Assembly (NCBI GenBank): GCA_965116325.1
Contig: OZ220675.1
Location: forward strand, 833,536 to 897,535
Source of the DNA: Dehalococcoidia bacterium
GTDB lineage: Bacteria > Chloroflexota > Dehalococcoidia > Lucifugimonadales > JAGWBF01
Length of the DNA: 64,000 bases
Direction of reading: 5' to 3'
The translations under genes were made by a program, and so were the position numbers. This document shows, piece by piece, positions 1-16,858 of the stretch. Each line of letters begins with the position of its first letter. The stretch's first letter is position 1. The notes below the pieces were generated by a model. The model was not told the origin of the DNA. It did not search any database and saw only the letters and a list, made by a program, of their open reading frames with translations.

Positions 1-942
1 TGCCATTACGATGCCCACATCCAGTCCCGGTTGCCCGTCACTGAAGACCTGAAGGAGTTGACTATGTTGGTAGAGGATGATGAGCTTTCCCCTGATATGT
101 CCCGGTTCCTCAAGACCATATTGGAGCAAGAACGGCTTCGTCTGGTTGGCGATTCCGAGCGTCGCAAGGAAGAGCTACGGTCATTGGTCAATATCAAAGG
201 ACGCGAGCTTGCTGACGAAGAGAATCTAGACAGCATTTATGAGAGTTACCTTGAGAAGCTGCCTGCTAAGGAACGCCCAAGGACGCGATCCCATGATCGC
301 CGACTCTTCAACGATTGGAGGAGCAGTCAGGAGAGGGAGCTGGCTGAGTGGACAAGAGAGCTGACAGCCCTTGAATCTCAAAGTGTGAATGGTGAACTGG
401 TATTCAGAAATACCAGGCACAGACTAATTCGGTTGCTGGAGACCCAAGCAAGATACTCCGGCCTACTTCCCCTGAGAAGTAAACAAGGCGTTGCAGTTCA
501 AGGGCAGGATGAAGAACTCCAGCTTTCCCAATCGAAGAGTCCTGATGGTTGGAGAACTTTTGCCGAGGTCAGAGAGTCGCACCAGACGAAGAGATTCAGC
601 GGATTCTCGACCAAGCCGACGAGCCTTCGAATTGACAATGGGGAGGTCAATGCTATCGGCAAGTGGTCCGATATTCTCTTGGAGACGGCAGAATGGCTGG
701 TAACAGCGGGGTTGCTCGCAAGAGAGCTGTGCCCTGTCGCAGCGGGCAAGAGGGCCAAGAGGCATTTGGTTCACATTGAGCCTGTACATCCAACAAACGA
801 ACCCTTCAAGTATCCCAGGCAGCTTTCGAATGGCTTATACGTAGAGTGTGGTTTCGATGTAAAAGGGACAATTAGACAATGCGAAGGGCTGCTTGAAGCA
901 TTCAGCCAGGACCCAGAACAGTTTAGGGTCCGACTGGGGTAA
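1..942 (+). CDS. hypothetical protein (5' end outside window)
   Basis: Frame 1 is open from nt 1 through the listed TTG at 31 to the stop at 940-942. Charged coiled-coil-like N part (ERLRLVGDSERRKEELRSL) and a compact C-terminal module (GKWSDILLETAEWLVTAGLL...NGLYVECGFDVKG). No family recognised by eye. DNA is AT-richer than the rest of the window. Confidence 0.5.
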   Translation, partial: CHYDAHIQSRLPVTEDLKELTMLVEDDELSPDMSRFLKTILEQERLRLVGDSERRKEELRSLVNIKGRELADEENLDSIYESYLEKLPAKERPRTRSHDRRLFNDWRSSQERELAEWTRELTALESQSVNGELVFRNTRHRLIRLLETQARYSGLLPLRSKQGVAVQGQDEELQLSQSKSPDGWRTFAEVRESHQTKRFSGFSTKPTSLRIDNGEVNAIGKWSDILLETAEWLVTAGLLARELCPVAAGKRAKRHLVHIEPVHPTNEPFKYPRQLSNGLYVECGFDVKGTIRQCEGLLEAFSQDPEQFRVRLG

Positions 943-12903: not shown

Positions 12904-13707
12904 TTATCTGATTAGGGGTCTAAGTTTTTCAAGTTCTGCCGAATAATTGATGGTCTTGAATCCATGAAGAACAGCTACCATGAATGGCGGATAGAGCAAT
13001 GTGTAACTCATCTCGTCCACCGATGAGCCAAGAGCATTCGCCCCCTCGGCGGCCATTTCAGATTTATGGGTCCAGCCTGGAACCGCCTCTTGCAGGAATC
13101 CATAAATGTTCCTAAACAGGCGGGAAACCTTAGCTCTGGGTTCTCTAGACGATGCGTCTTTCGTTCCTGTTGACAGATACGAATTGGTTTCCAACAAGTT
13201 CTCTATGTTTTCCAACCCAATCTCTCTCGAATCTCCATATTCCGAGGTACGCCTGTCGTATAACCCTAACACGTCTTCGACCGCGGATTTCACTTCCTCG
13301 TCATCATTCCAATGAAACGAAGCTCTGACGAGTTTTCTGAAGCCTGCTCCCACGGAACTATCAACCACTAAGTCTCGCGATTCGCTTCCTAAGAGTGCAA
13401 AGGAATAGTAGTCCAAAAGGTGCAGGTAAAAGCAGTAGAACTCGCAACGCAAAAGGAACACACATTCCGGATCCAATTGAAGATTCCAGTGTGCCCCGAG
13501 GGACTCCACAAGGGAGTCACTCGAGGTGCGAGTTGCATTAGCTACCTTGAGATTCAGGTGGATCAATGCCTCAACGAGCCCTTCCACTCCATTGCCTAAG
13601 TTGCGAGGCACACTTTGCTCTCGCTGTCTTTCCACCTGTTTGGTTGCAGCCTCTTCCGGGTTGAAGAGTGACTGAACGATCTGTCCCAGATTTCGAAAAA
13701 CCCCCAA
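12904..13707 (-). CDS. hypothetical protein (267 aa)
   Basis: Long ORF in about 50% GC DNA (spot count), same strand as the three upstream island genes. No motif recognised. Confidence 0.5.
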   Translation of the reverse strand: MGVFRNLGQIVQSLFNPEEAATKQVERQREQSVPRNLGNGVEGLVEALIHLNLKVANATRTSSDSLVESLGAHWNLQLDPECVFLLRCEFYCFYLHLLDYYSFALLGSESRDLVVDSSVGAGFRKLVRASFHWNDDEEVKSAVEDVLGLYDRRTSEYGDSREIGLENIENLLETNSYLSTGTKDASSREPRAKVSRLFRNIYGFLQEAVPGWTHKSEMAAEGANALGSSVDEMSYTLLYPPFMVAVLHGFKTINYSAELEKLRPLIR

Positions 13708-13893
13708 AGCTCACCTCACTCAGTAAACATTTGCCAGCATACTCATTCTGACGTCGATTTGGCCATGTCGAGTCATCTAAAGCTGATCGCATATATTTGG
13801 GTTTCGGATTACACACCAGCCCATTTAACATCGTGTCCAGATACCTCGAACGAAGCTAGTGGGGAGGCCCCGGTTGCCTTCTGCGCTGTCTGG

Positions 13894-14481
13894 TCAACGC
13901 GTGATGCGGGAAGAATCCTCTTTTGCACCCAAATAGGCGGATACCATTCCGGTCCGTGTCTCGCCTCCCGAATCCATAACTACAACGGTGCGGCCTGTCG
14001 AAAGCAGTTCCTCGATATCGGACTTTACAGCTTCCTGCGTACCTGGGGGAAATGTGTTTTTCTTACCAAAATCATAAGTAGGGTGTTCCTTAACCACTAT
14101 ACCAAGTCCCTTATGATGGCAATTTAGCCACTCTTCAAACGTCAGACGATTCTTGCGTTCCGAGCAATCGTCGAAACCTCCGCAGAAACTATAGAAGGAG
14201 AATTCACTAGTCCCTTTAGCATCCTTCTTTTGGCCCAGAAGGGAGACTATTGCGATACTGGAGCCGCAATGTTCAGAAAGGCCAAGAACCCAAGAATGAA
14301 CGGCAGCGTCACTCACCTTCGCAATTTTGCTGCGTTCGCATGCCGACCTCCCCGGCCTTGCACAGGTGAAGAAATGGGAGACCCCCTTTGGGGTGTCCAC
14401 TTTCCATCGCTTGAGTCTGTAAGGTTTCTTGGGCTTAACGCCGGGAAGCTTAGTGCGCCTAGCATAACTTCTACTTGGCAC
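13894..14481 (-). CDS. dual-specificity/tyrosine phosphatase-like protein with Asp in place of the catalytic Cys
   Basis: Layout resembles bacterial DSP-like phosphatases: ARPGR..., IAIVSLL, general-acid-like HPTYDFGKKNTFPP, and P-loop position RTVVVMDSGGETRTGMVSAYL (expected VHCxxGxxRTG). Start lies 23 nt after the stop of the upstream gene. Confidence 0.5.
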   Translation of the reverse strand: MPSRSYARRTKLPGVKPKKPYRLKRWKVDTPKGVSHFFTCARPGRSACERSKIAKVSDAAVHSWVLGLSEHCGSSIAIVSLLGQKKDAKGTSEFSFYSFCGGFDDCSERKNRLTFEEWLNCHHKGLGIVVKEHPTYDFGKKNTFPPGTQEAVKSDIEELLSTGRTVVVMDSGGETRTGMVSAYLGAKEDSSRITR

Positions 14482-14504: not shown

Positions 14505-15623
14505 CTACCGGACCTTCAGAGTACCGTCATAATTGTCCCACTCTGTAACCAGTCTTTCCGGTAACGAAAACACCACGCAGGTAAGACCATAACTACCATA
14601 GCACCACTTTTCTTCATCGAAGAAGGTCACAATTCCCTTTGGCGTGCCTTGGACGTGTAACACATCGTCCTGGGAAGAACCTCTAGTGAAATACCCTTCA
14701 GTTGTCGGTTCACTGGTCGATGGCAGCAGTAGGACCTTCAGAGTACCGTCGTAATTGTCCCACTCTGTAACCAGCCTCTCTGGTAAAGAGAACGTCACAC
14801 AGGTAAGACCATAACTACCGTAGCACCACTTTTCTTCATCGTAGAAAGTCACAATTTCCTTCGGCGTGCCTTGGACATGTAACACATCGTCCTGGGACGA
14901 ACCTCTAGTGAAATACCCTTCGGTTGTCGGTTCACTGGTCAAAGGCAGCAGTAGGACCTTCAGAGCACCGTCGTAATTGTCCCACTTTGTCACCAGCCTC
15001 TCTGGTAAAGAGAACGTCACGCAGGTAAGACCATAACTACCGTAGCACCACTTTTCCTCATCGTAGAAAACCGTAATTTCCTTCGGCGTTCCCTGAACAT
15101 GCTGCACAACATCTTGCGAGGACCCTCGGGTGAAGTAGTCCTGCCCCAGGACAGGTATTGGTGTCGGGGTAGGGACCGGCGTTGGTGTGGGTGTTGGGAT
15201 GGGGGTCGGCGTTGGCGTGGGTGTGGCAGTCGGTAGGGATGCGATACGGGTAGCCTCCTGGCTCCTGGCATACCTTTCCGCTTCCTGCTGCACTTCTATG
15301 GCTGACCGCGTGACCGCCTCCTCCAGCTCTTTTTGTCTCTGAACGGCGTCAATGGCTGCCCTGGTGGCGGCGATGTCCGGGGTGGGCCCGATGGTGGGAA
15401 AGGGAGCTGATGTTGGTATTGGAGCACGGGTCCCAACTGAGTCAGATAAGGCTGCTACTGGCACCGCACCTGCCCGCCTCACAATCGCCGGGGTCGAGAT
15501 GGGAACAGGAGTCCTTGTCGGCAGCAAACTGACGCTGCCAGCGCCTCCGCCATCTCCATTACCGTCTCCACTCCAGTTGGATGCAGCTACCATCACAATT
15601 GCTATGACAACAGCCACGCCCAC
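14505..15623 (-). CDS. membrane-anchored Pro/Thr-rich protein with three tandem 74-aa domains (probably the C-terminal part of the J-domain gene upstream)
   Basis: Hydrophobic N terminus GVAVVIAIVMVAAS, TPTPTP linker, then 3x GYFTRGSSQDDVLHVQGTPKEIVTFYDEEKWCYGSYGLTCVTFSLPERLVTEWDNYDGTLKV. The listed GTG start lies inside a TM helix and lacks a well-spaced SD. Confidence 0.7.
   Translation of the reverse strand: MGVAVVIAIVMVAASNWSGDGNGDGGGAGSVSLLPTRTPVPISTPAIVRRAGAVPVAALSDSVGTRAPIPTSAPFPTIGPTPDIAATRAAIDAVQRQKELEEAVTRSAIEVQQEAERYARSQEATRIASLPTATPTPTPTPIPTPTPTPVPTPTPIPVLGQDYFTRGSSQDVVQHVQGTPKEITVFYDEEKWCYGSYGLTCVTFSLPERLVTKWDNYDGALKVLLLPLTSEPTTEGYFTRGSSQDDVLHVQGTPKEIVTFYDEEKWCYGSYGLTCVTFSLPERLVTEWDNYDGTLKVLLLPSTSEPTTEGYFTRGSSQDDVLHVQGTPKGIVTFFDEEKWCYGSYGLTCVVFSLPERLVTEWDNYDGTLKVR
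14508..15143. repeat. 222-bp tandem repeat, about 2.9 copies, in-frame inside the CDS
   Basis: GGACCTTCAGAG(T/C)ACCGTC recurs at 14510, 14732 and 14954 (period 222 = 74 codons). Copies are about 90% identical by eye. Confidence 0.85.
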
Positions 15624-15659
15624 TACAATGGCTATTGTCCTTGGGACACTGGTTTCTCC

Positions 15660-15992
15660 TCATCCCGGAAACGTTACTGGGGGTGGTGTGCGAGGAGGGG
15701 GTGGAGGCGACGCCCCTGTGTTTGACGCTCGGCGGGCACGATGGTCGTCTGGGGCTTCAGTTTCCTCTCGAACCTGGGCAGTTCGCCGGCGGTCGTATGC
15801 TCCACGTAGGTCGGGGTCGCTTAGAGTCCCATATGCAAGGTTCAGCCGCGTCATGATCTCGGCGGCCTCTTGCGACGGGTTGACGTCGGGATGATACAGC
15901 CGGGCGAGCCTCCGATATGCCGATTGAATTACGTCAGGATGGGCTGACGGATGGACCTGAAGAATTTCGTACAGGTCTTCAAGATCAGCCAA
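15660..15992 (-). CDS. J-domain (DnaJ-like) protein, ends at an in-frame TGA
   Basis: DLYEILQVHPSAHPDVIQSAYRRLARLYHPDVNP ... GTLSDPDLRGAYD with the HPD motif, then a Pro-rich tail. TGA at 15660-15662 is in frame with the next ORF 12 codons downstream. Confidence 0.85.
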   Translation of the reverse strand: MADLEDLYEILQVHPSAHPDVIQSAYRRLARLYHPDVNPSQEAAEIMTRLNLAYGTLSDPDLRGAYDRRRTAQVREETEAPDDHRARRASNTGASPPPPPRTPPPVTFPG

Positions 15993-16035
15993 ACTTGGTC
16001 ACCTCAATTCACGAGTTGGTTCGAGCCATCATAAC

Positions 16036-16069
16036 AAAAACCGGGCCCTTATCAGGCCCGGCTCTTTTT
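16036..16069 (-). terminator. intrinsic terminator-like hairpin (bidirectional shape) ending the 16S-trailer/TA transcription unit
   Basis: CCGGGCC (16041-47) / GGCCCGG (16055-61) with a 7-nt loop. Flanked by AAAAA (16036-40, which gives UUUUU after the hairpin on the minus strand) and TTTTT (16065-69). Confidence 0.5.
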
Positions 16070-16132
16070 GTGTGTGCTCCTTAGCCTCTGGATAGTGGAA
16101 GGAGAGGTGTTTTATCCGTTGGGAATCGGTGG
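16056..16132. repeat. direct repeat copy A (distal duplicate of the 16S trailer segment)
   Basis: 77 nt, 74/77 identical to 16782-16858, with the first 58 nt identical. Contains a second copy of the processing-stem 3' strand (16070-16109). Confidence 0.9.
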
Positions 16133-16145
16133 CTGAGCCCGCCGG

Positions 16146-16493
16146 CTACTGGGGGCGGATCCTGACTCGCCCCGGTTCGGCACTGACCAGGGTGCCGTAG
16201 CGAATCTCCCCACCATAACGGGACAGCACCATCAGGCATGCGTCCGCCTGTTGCTCAGCTCGCCAGTTCACTAGGCGAATGATTCCCGCGTGGGGCATCC
16301 CATGGAGGACTGCCAGTTCACCGAAATCTTTATCGAGGGTAACCAGCACTCGTCCTTCGTCCAAGGCACGCGCCATGATTTCGGCATCGGAGACATTCTC
16401 CGGCCACTCACCAGCCCATACGACATCGTGTCCAGCAGCCACCAGCGAATCACGCGACCCTCCCCATACACAGGCATCCAGCAATAGCCTCAC
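16146..16493 (-). CDS. PIN-like (DUF5615 / Mut7-C type) putative toxin
   Basis: MRLLLDACVW...DAEIMARALDEGRVLVTLDKDFGEL is the usual DUF5615 PIN-like pattern. Starts 3 nt after the DUF433 gene stop. Confidence 0.75.
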   Translation of the reverse strand: MRLLLDACVWGGSRDSLVAAGHDVVWAGEWPENVSDAEIMARALDEGRVLVTLDKDFGELAVLHGMPHAGIIRLVNWRAEQQADACLMVLSRYGGEIRYGTLVSAEPGRVRIRPQ

Positions 16494-16496
16494 CGG

Positions 16497-16739
16497 CTAT
16501 TCGACCACAAGGGATTCGATGCGCTCGCGTCCCACTATCCTGCGGGCGTAGATGAGACAAGCCTGGATATCCTCAGCTTCCAGCCAGGGGTATCCACCGA
16601 TGATGGTCTCGGGAGTGCTGCCGGCAGCTAGCATATCCAGAATGTGTTCGACTGCCAGTCGCCTACCCCGGACGATAGGCTTACCCTCGAAAATCTCGTG
16701 GTTGATAGTGATTCTTTCCAGTAACTTGCCTTCATCCAT
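16497..16739 (-). CDS. DUF433 domain protein, putative antitoxin
   Basis: ITINHEIFEGKPIVRGRRLAVEHILDMLAAGSTPETIIGGYPWLEAEDIQACLIYA matches the DUF433 pattern. DUF433 is the canonical upstream partner of DUF5615 genes. Confidence 0.75.
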   Translation of the reverse strand: MDEGKLLERITINHEIFEGKPIVRGRRLAVEHILDMLAAGSTPETIIGGYPWLEAEDIQACLIYARRIVGRERIESLVVE

Positions 16740-16781: not shown

Positions 16782-16858
16782 GCCCGGCTCTTTTTGTGTG
16801 TGCTCCTTAGCCTCTGGATAGTGGAAGGAGAGGTGTTTTTACCATTGGGAATCGGTGG
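16782..16858. repeat. direct repeat copy B (16S-proximal)
   Basis: See copy A. Offset is 726 bp, and the TA pair is the only content between the copies. Confidence 0.9.
16796..16835 (-). other. 3' strand of the pre-16S leader-trailer (RNase III-type) processing helix
   Basis: On the rRNA-sense strand it reads CACCUCUCCUUCCACUAUCCAGAGGCUAAGGAGCACACAC. This pairs with leader GUGUGCUC...CUGGAUAGUGGAAGGAAAGGU as 8 bp + internal loop + 16 bp + 4 bp. Confidence 0.6.

Follow-up and report, generated by a model that had tools for sequence, protein, structure and literature searches.

In the class III (C) J protein DjlA of Escherichia coli, the transmembrane (TM) segment is N-terminal and the J domain C-terminal, and there is no sizeable extracytoplasmic domain. 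In ARC6/Ftn2 of cyanobacteria and plastids, an N-terminal J-type domain lies in the cytoplasm or stroma and is connected through one TM segment to a C-terminal domain on the opposite side of the membrane; the J-like domain of ARC6 has no HPD motif. Here we examine a gene for a J domain, a TM helix, and three repeat modules in a 64,000-nucleotide (nt) stretch of a Dehalococcoidia genome (GenBank assembly GCA_965116325.1, contig OZ220675.1, positions 833,536 to 897,535), referred to below as the window. An in-frame TGA divides this gene into two open reading frames (ORFs). The gene and all of its features lie on the minus strand, and coordinates are positions in the window unless the genome contig or another locus is named.

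The two ORFs are one gene, a nonsense-split membrane J-protein gene, and the interruption is a non-programmed change from TGG to TGA, that is, either a nonsense mutation that is real and recent or an error in the consensus. The mutation is probably real, and the gene would then be a young pseudogene of an accessory gene, because it is the only copy in the genome and lies in a variable, lower-GC stretch beside an unlinked 16S rRNA gene. The ancestral product would have been a type II membrane protein with a cytoplasmic N-terminal J domain (the co-chaperone module of DnaK/Hsp70, with its HPD motif), joined by a Pro-rich linker to its only TM helix and, after that helix, a Thr/Pro-rich stalk that leads to three beta-rich, Cys-containing modules outside the membrane. 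One G-to-A transition would have turned a Trp codon (TGG) into TGA, eight codons ahead of the TM helix. RF2 would now end translation from the TTG start after 110 residues and a soluble J-domain fragment would be released; the TM and repeat part, which has no start or Shine-Dalgarno (SD) sequence of its own, would essentially not be made, apart from the background leak by near-cognate tRNA-Trp that surely occurs at this TGA and restores the original residue.

One gene across the stop codon

The 5' piece (15660..15992) begins at a TTG (15992-15990) and spans 110 codons, which encode the J domain and a Pro-rich, disordered linker, before the premature TGA (15660..15662). In the ORF reading, 12 sense codons of the same frame (GETSVPRTIAIV) follow the TGA and lead into a GTG (15623-15621), from which the frame stays open for 372 amino acids (aa) to 14505; the true stop, TAG at 14505-14507, closes the third repeat module. 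The initial annotation had described a J-domain and Pro-rich ORF ending at the TGA and a second ORF in the same frame 12 sense codons later, and both descriptions hold, the former by ORF reading as well as by Pfam.

The closest homolog, P0007, is found in a metagenome-assembled genome (MAG) of the same genus (CBDBNM010000002.1), where the gene is one 477-aa ORF. Compared codon by codon, the ortholog reads GTA ACG TTT TCT GGA TGG GGA GAA and the window GTA ACG TTT CCG GGA TGA GGA GAA, and the Trp codon TGG of the ortholog (L003 6190-6200) aligns exactly with the TGA of the window; the question posed by the initial annotation, whether an ortholog encodes an amino acid here, is thereby answered in the affirmative. 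The orthology is positional, as the order ggt, unlinked 16S rRNA gene, J gene, DUF192, and DeoC onward is common to both genomes (the names DUF192 and DeoC come from the gene list at the ortholog locus, the corresponding window stretches having been matched by blastn, and the 16S rRNA gene was identified by Rfam). The two ORFs are therefore not chance neighbours, since in their positional ortholog a single ORF runs through, with a sense codon where the window has its stop.

A protein search with the read-through product as the query retrieved many proteins that unite a J domain, a TM helix, and the same repeat modules in one chain; six of these (P0003, P0006, P0016, P0017, P0019, and P0027) covered 100% of the query, and PF00226 occurs alongside the repeats in many more homologs. 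Each of the 11 aligned family homologs crosses the linker and the TM helix as one uninterrupted chain, and the J domain is whole in 10 of them, the exception being P0007, which was called from M47. Two separate genes in the orthologs would have spoken against the reading of the initial annotation, namely, a single J-domain/TM/extracytoplasmic-repeat gene cut by one stop. The aligned homologs are all fused and the ortholog is intact with TGG, and that reading is supported.

The translation signals also belong to one gene. The TTG start is preceded by a stretch (15999..16055) containing a promoter-like site at 16055-16028 with a TG-extended TATGAT, which is a consensus match only, and the SD sequence GAGGTGA at 16005-15999, a 7-nt complement of the 3' end of the window's own 16S rRNA (...GGATCACCTCCTTTCT); both GAGGTGA and the TTG are kept in the same-genus ortholog (L003). 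Upstream of the nominal GTG start of the 3' piece (15621..15623), AGGA is the only SD-like string, and because it ends 14 nt away, which is too far, it is unsuitable for that GTG; this agrees with the initial annotation, which had noted the want of a well-spaced SD. A promoter-consensus scan found no promoter-like site before the GTG. An ATG that overlaps the stop (ATGA) was considered as a coupling signal and rejected, as it is out of frame, opens an ORF of 35 codons, and is also present in the ortholog.

The GTG lies within the single TM helix, TIAIVVGVAVVIAIVMVAA (15582..15638; residues 119-137, T119-A137, of the read-through product). This is the most hydrophobic 19-residue window among the first 190 residues scanned (Kyte-Doolittle mean, 3.0), AlphaFold2 models the read-through product with a single helix at residues 120-137, and the TM segment is conserved in all aligned homologs. 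Because the GTG corresponds to residue 124, the helix straddles it, and the claim that one hydrophobic helix runs across the supposed start codon is thus borne out by both hydropathy and AlphaFold2. A further internal GTG (15462..15464, a coordinate computed from the stop at 14505) was chosen by the gene caller of the source for the recorded product P0002, which is 319 aa long and 100% identical to the 3' piece of the window; begun there, P0002 would lack the TM helix. The ortholog is on record as 431 aa, begun at an internal ATG (L003 6001) and not at the SD-backed TTG (477 aa). Gene callers thus mis-start both orthologs, at an internal GTG in the window and at an internal ATG in the sister genome.

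The J domain (15792-15977) scores 68 bits against PF00226 (cut-off, 27.8; E = 7.8e-19), with residues 6-67 matching positions 1-63 of the 63-position profile. Its HPD motif at residues 34-36 (...RLYHPDVNP...) is conserved in the aligned homologs, AlphaFold2 places its helices at residues 19-33, 41-57, and 60-79 with a predicted local distance difference test score (pLDDT) of 85-89, and Foldseek matches it to solved J domains (E = 5e-5; root mean square deviation, 0.6-2.5 A). The linker around the TGA is disordered (pLDDT below 40). From the flanking Arg and acidic residues and the positive-inside rule, the TM helix is predicted to be oriented N-in/C-out. Beyond it, the AlphaFold2 model of the read-through product has a disordered Gly/Asp-rich and then Thr/Pro-rich stalk and a long helix at residues 207-251 (15240..15374). 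This helix, AATRAAIDAVQRQKELEEAVTRSAIEVQQEAERYARSQEATRIA, is held within a 58-residue segment (15234-15407) that is absent from the ortholog, where the pairwise alignment has a gap; the repeat and linker layout also differs between the window gene and its ortholog.

Three tandem modules of about 74 aa each (14937-15140, 14715-14918, and 14508-14696) complete the protein. Each consists of one short helix and four strands (five in a single-module model) with two Cys. The copies share 88-94% identity, and their pLDDT in the full model is about 77-89. By the predicted topology, the modules would be extracytoplasmic. Relatives often carry the same modules fused to trypsin-like protease domains, with no J domain, which fits a role outside the membrane. 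Based on this architecture, we hypothesize that the intact protein most likely serves to tether DnaK recruitment to the membrane via an outer sensor or binding module.

Across the 495 codons of the read-through ORF, there is neither a second stop nor a frameshift. An ORF of this length offers about 56 site-equivalents mutable to stops, and under neutral drift the probability of no second stop is 0.06 at 0.05 substitutions/site and 0.004 at 0.1. As there is no second disabling change, the stop is either of recent origin compared with the divergence from the sister species or not real. Against the ortholog, the ratio of nonsynonymous to synonymous substitution rates (dN/dS) is 0.23 before the stop (dS, 0.41) and 0.46 after it (dS, 0.25), over 195 gap-free codons; a value below 1 after the stop is expected anyway if the stop is young. 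No other copy of the repeat-bearing part was found in the 2.37-Mb genome. A relative of this gene in G019, a genome from another genus of the same family (L009 1140-1812, minus strand), has a frameshift that lies between its J domain and TM segment and breaks off within the first repeat. This is a second, independent decayed copy, and decay of the J-TM-repeat family therefore recurs. A genome-wide codon-usage score for stop-interrupted genes did not separate true from antisense frames (GC content, 61%), and the Pro-rich flank of the gene itself scored negative in that scan; hence, neither a pseudogene load nor an enrichment of TGA is derivable from it.

Possible decoding of the in-frame UGA and rival explanations

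The initial annotation had listed stop-codon read-through or recoding among the possible causes of the interruption, and this cause is now disfavored: TGA is a normal stop in this genome, there is no suppressor tRNA, and neither the geometry of the selenocysteine insertion sequence (SECIS) nor the residues in the homologs fit. Genome-wide, TGA ends 1150 of the 3150 long ORFs (36%), and the genome encodes one tRNA-Trp(CCA), its only tRNA with a UCA anticodon being tRNA-Sec. Genome-wide reassignment of UGA (codes 4/25) is therefore excluded. Because the genome holds tRNA-Sec (2085121-2085217 on the genome contig), SelA, and SelB, all above curated cut-offs (314 versus 242 bits and 546 versus 268 bits for the two proteins), selenocysteine at the TGA needed a real test. 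In at least six genes exposed by a codon-usage scan for stop-interrupted genes, a UGA falls within one Pfam domain, which is AhpC/TSA in three of them and thioredoxin, Peripla_BP_2, or luciferase-like monooxygenase in one each; these are at 65583(+), 1207092(+), 1481292(+), 2233724(+), 377873(-), and 1015805(+) on the genome contig. The hairpins after these six UGAs have their base at +6..17 and the start of their loop at +20..31, counted from the U, and three of the loops are GGU. The more unusual of these genes are the Peripla_BP_2 binding protein (CEEU) and the luciferase-like monooxygenase, with GGU-loop hairpins at +21..23.

The TGA of the J gene is likewise followed by a stable hairpin, 34 nt long (15606..15639; 12 bp, a bulged U, 2 bp, and the loop AGUGG) and beginning 20 nt downstream; the 66-nt stretch that contains it (15600-15665) folds with -22.9 kcal/mol as a whole (z = -2.6). 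Together with the Sec machinery and the in-domain UGA genes, the bulged U and the G in the loop are what one would cite for SelB inserting selenocysteine here. However, counted from the U of UGA, this hairpin has its base at +24 and its loop at +39..+43, farther than in any of the genome's own candidates, and a loop at +39..43 is barely within the loosest published SECIS range. The hairpin is a palindromic run of Ile, Ala, Val, and Gly codons that encode the TM helix, the ortholog with TGG forms a similar one (z = -1.9 for its 66-nt stretch), and Rfam at a permissive threshold returned only a chance microRNA match around the site (E = 5.6). Neither Cys nor Sec was seen at the aligned position in the 11 homologs, where the ortholog has Trp and the others, poorly aligned here, have gaps or various residues, and there is no redox motif of the CxxU/UxxC type near the TGA, which falls in the disordered, variable linker. 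We therefore consider selenocysteine at this codon exceedingly improbable. The hairpin might instead be read as an aid to tolerated or regulated read-through by near-cognate tRNA-Trp, which would yield some full-length protein, with its original Trp, beside the short J fragment. Of the stops, UGA leaks most and is usually misread by tRNA-Trp(CCA), and the residue restored would be exactly that of the ortholog; but the base after the stop is G, and UGAG, which is a comparatively efficient terminator in E. coli, is no rarer than the other contexts among the genome's real TGA stops (29%). Special tRNA-Trp species with a 4-bp anticodon stem read UGA efficiently (PMC13092985), whereas the sole tRNA-Trp of this genome has an ordinary 5-bp anticodon stem. 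The hairpin is coding sequence that also occurs in the TGG ortholog, and TGA at this site is known from one genome only. Nothing points to an enhancement of read-through over the background leak, and read-through of this kind is very unlikely. We would give equally little credence to the broader proposition that the TGA is retained and decoded often enough to be useful, by near-cognate Trp or by Sec via the TM-coding hairpin; if it were true, one gene would supply a soluble J fragment and the full membrane-anchored protein in a ratio set by termination efficiency.

It is also conceivable that both parts are made as separate, functional products, the membrane and repeat part through termination-reinitiation at GTG 15623 or 15617. 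The former GTG is 39 nt past the stop, a distance that reinitiating ribosomes are generally known to reach, and dN/dS after the stop is below 1, although a young stop would leave it so. A product started at the GTG, however, would retain no more than about 14 hydrophobic residues, without the Arg flank, and would for these reasons be a poor membrane anchor; the GTG has neither an SD nor a promoter-like site, the homologs found by search and alignment are all fused, and cutting the J domain off from the rest defeats the purpose of a membrane-tethered J protein. Such a split is highly doubtful, and even jointly, a functional split, useful read-through, and selenocysteine are improbable. Possible, if rather unlikely, is that the base call or the consensus is wrong here, or that the assembler chose a minority allele, in which case the true sequence would be TGG and the gene intact and ordinary. 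One base separates the stop from the sense codon of the ortholog, nothing else is broken across the whole frame, the ancestral string ATGGGGAG contains a G run, and strain mixtures and polishing errors are generally known to occur in single-contig MAGs from metagenomes such as this one. Yet long-read consensus errors are mostly homopolymer indels and not substitutions, nonsense pseudogenes are common in bacterial genomes, and loss is plausible for an accessory gene at a variable locus. Several points weigh against a real nonsense mutation as the explanation. The base at 15660 is known from the assembly consensus alone, and no second assembly of the species was found in contig and exact-sequence searches: a degenerate 48-mer across the site matched only the same-genus ortholog in genome contigs and nothing in metagenome contigs, a protein-based search for related loci confirmed 0 of 77 pattern matches, and exact look-ups of the 110-aa piece, P0002, and the TGA=W read-through products (from the TTG and from M47) returned no record. 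As there is one true ortholog, the direction from TGG to TGA follows from the intactness of all homologs and not from an outgroup codon, and the full Sec machinery with a stable hairpin after the TGA leaves decoding formally possible. On balance, we still favor a recent nonsense mutation in an accessory gene.

The variable locus beside the 16S rRNA gene

The genome is a single-contig MAG of 2,369,888 bp that is 93.5% complete. The J gene adjoins the unlinked 16S rRNA gene in a variable stretch whose GC content is 0.54-0.56, versus 0.61 genome-wide, and several inserted genes distinguish this locus between the window and the sister genome. After the J gene, the window has two minus-strand ORFs (12904-14481; 195 aa and 267 aa) with no Pfam family; the sister locus is without them, carries a DUF2283 gene instead, and has an nSTAND-type ATPase gene further upstream. 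Together with the GC dip, the stretch 12904-14481 looks like a variable accessory islet.

Between the 16S rRNA gene and the J gene, the window carries a DUF433/DUF5615 pair (toxin-antitoxin-like; 16146-16739), which the sister genome lacks. The pair is bracketed by a 77-nt direct repeat (16056-16132 and 16782-16858) whose copies are 96% identical and 726 nt apart, and in the sister genome the 77-mer occurs once. A 726-bp stretch seems to have been inserted or duplicated here recently, immediately downstream of the unlinked 16S rRNA gene.

Comparison with known systems

For annotation, both ORFs and the 319-aa product represent one disrupted gene, and position 15660 deserves a flag. The locus is a small, clean example of the decay of an accessory gene at a variable site beside an unlinked 16S rRNA gene in a Dehalococcoidia MAG, and the feature is ordinary and not a recoding signal. 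The interest lies in the intact J-TM-module family and not in the stop codon. This family is uncharacterised and combines a cytoplasmic J domain and one TM helix with a variable number of Cys-containing modules outside, and it may link DnaK to events in the cell envelope.

The interrupted gene resembles an ordinary bacterial nonsense pseudogene in its lone in-frame stop, in the sense codon of a relative one transition away, and in a downstream half without start signals; nothing substantive sets it apart, and the base call may equally be an assembly error. It shares with bacterial selenoprotein genes, which pair a UGA with a SECIS read by SelB, an in-frame UGA, a stable hairpin, and a genome with complete Sec machinery. 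It differs from them in that the hairpin is too distant and derived from coding sequence, and in having no Cys homologs, no redox motif, and a disordered linker at the position.

The modules recall BamE/SmpA_OmlA (PF04355) as small alpha+beta units outside the membrane, and the PF04355 label is precomputed on many homologs. The score of the whole protein is just above the cut-off (26.1 versus 23.2 bits), but no single stretch passes alone, and the best PDB fold match for one module had an E value of 0.3 (Foldseek, with an AlphaFold2 model of pLDDT 63 from a six-row alignment). A profile search of the module against PDB sequences gave nothing below E = 0.18, and the full-length model retrieved only J domains in Foldseek. 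Dehalococcoidia are commonly characterized as having no outer membrane, which makes a BamE-type role unlikely.

With ARC6/Ftn2, the window gene shares the overall layout only, without evidence of homology; it has the HPD motif that ARC6 lacks, and the C-terminal domains are unrelated. From E. coli DjlA it differs in its order, which is J domain, TM helix, and outside repeats. The sequence relation seen with DjlA is limited to the J domain, which in both would be a cytoplasmic, HPD-bearing domain tethered by one TM segment and presumably recruiting DnaK to the membrane.

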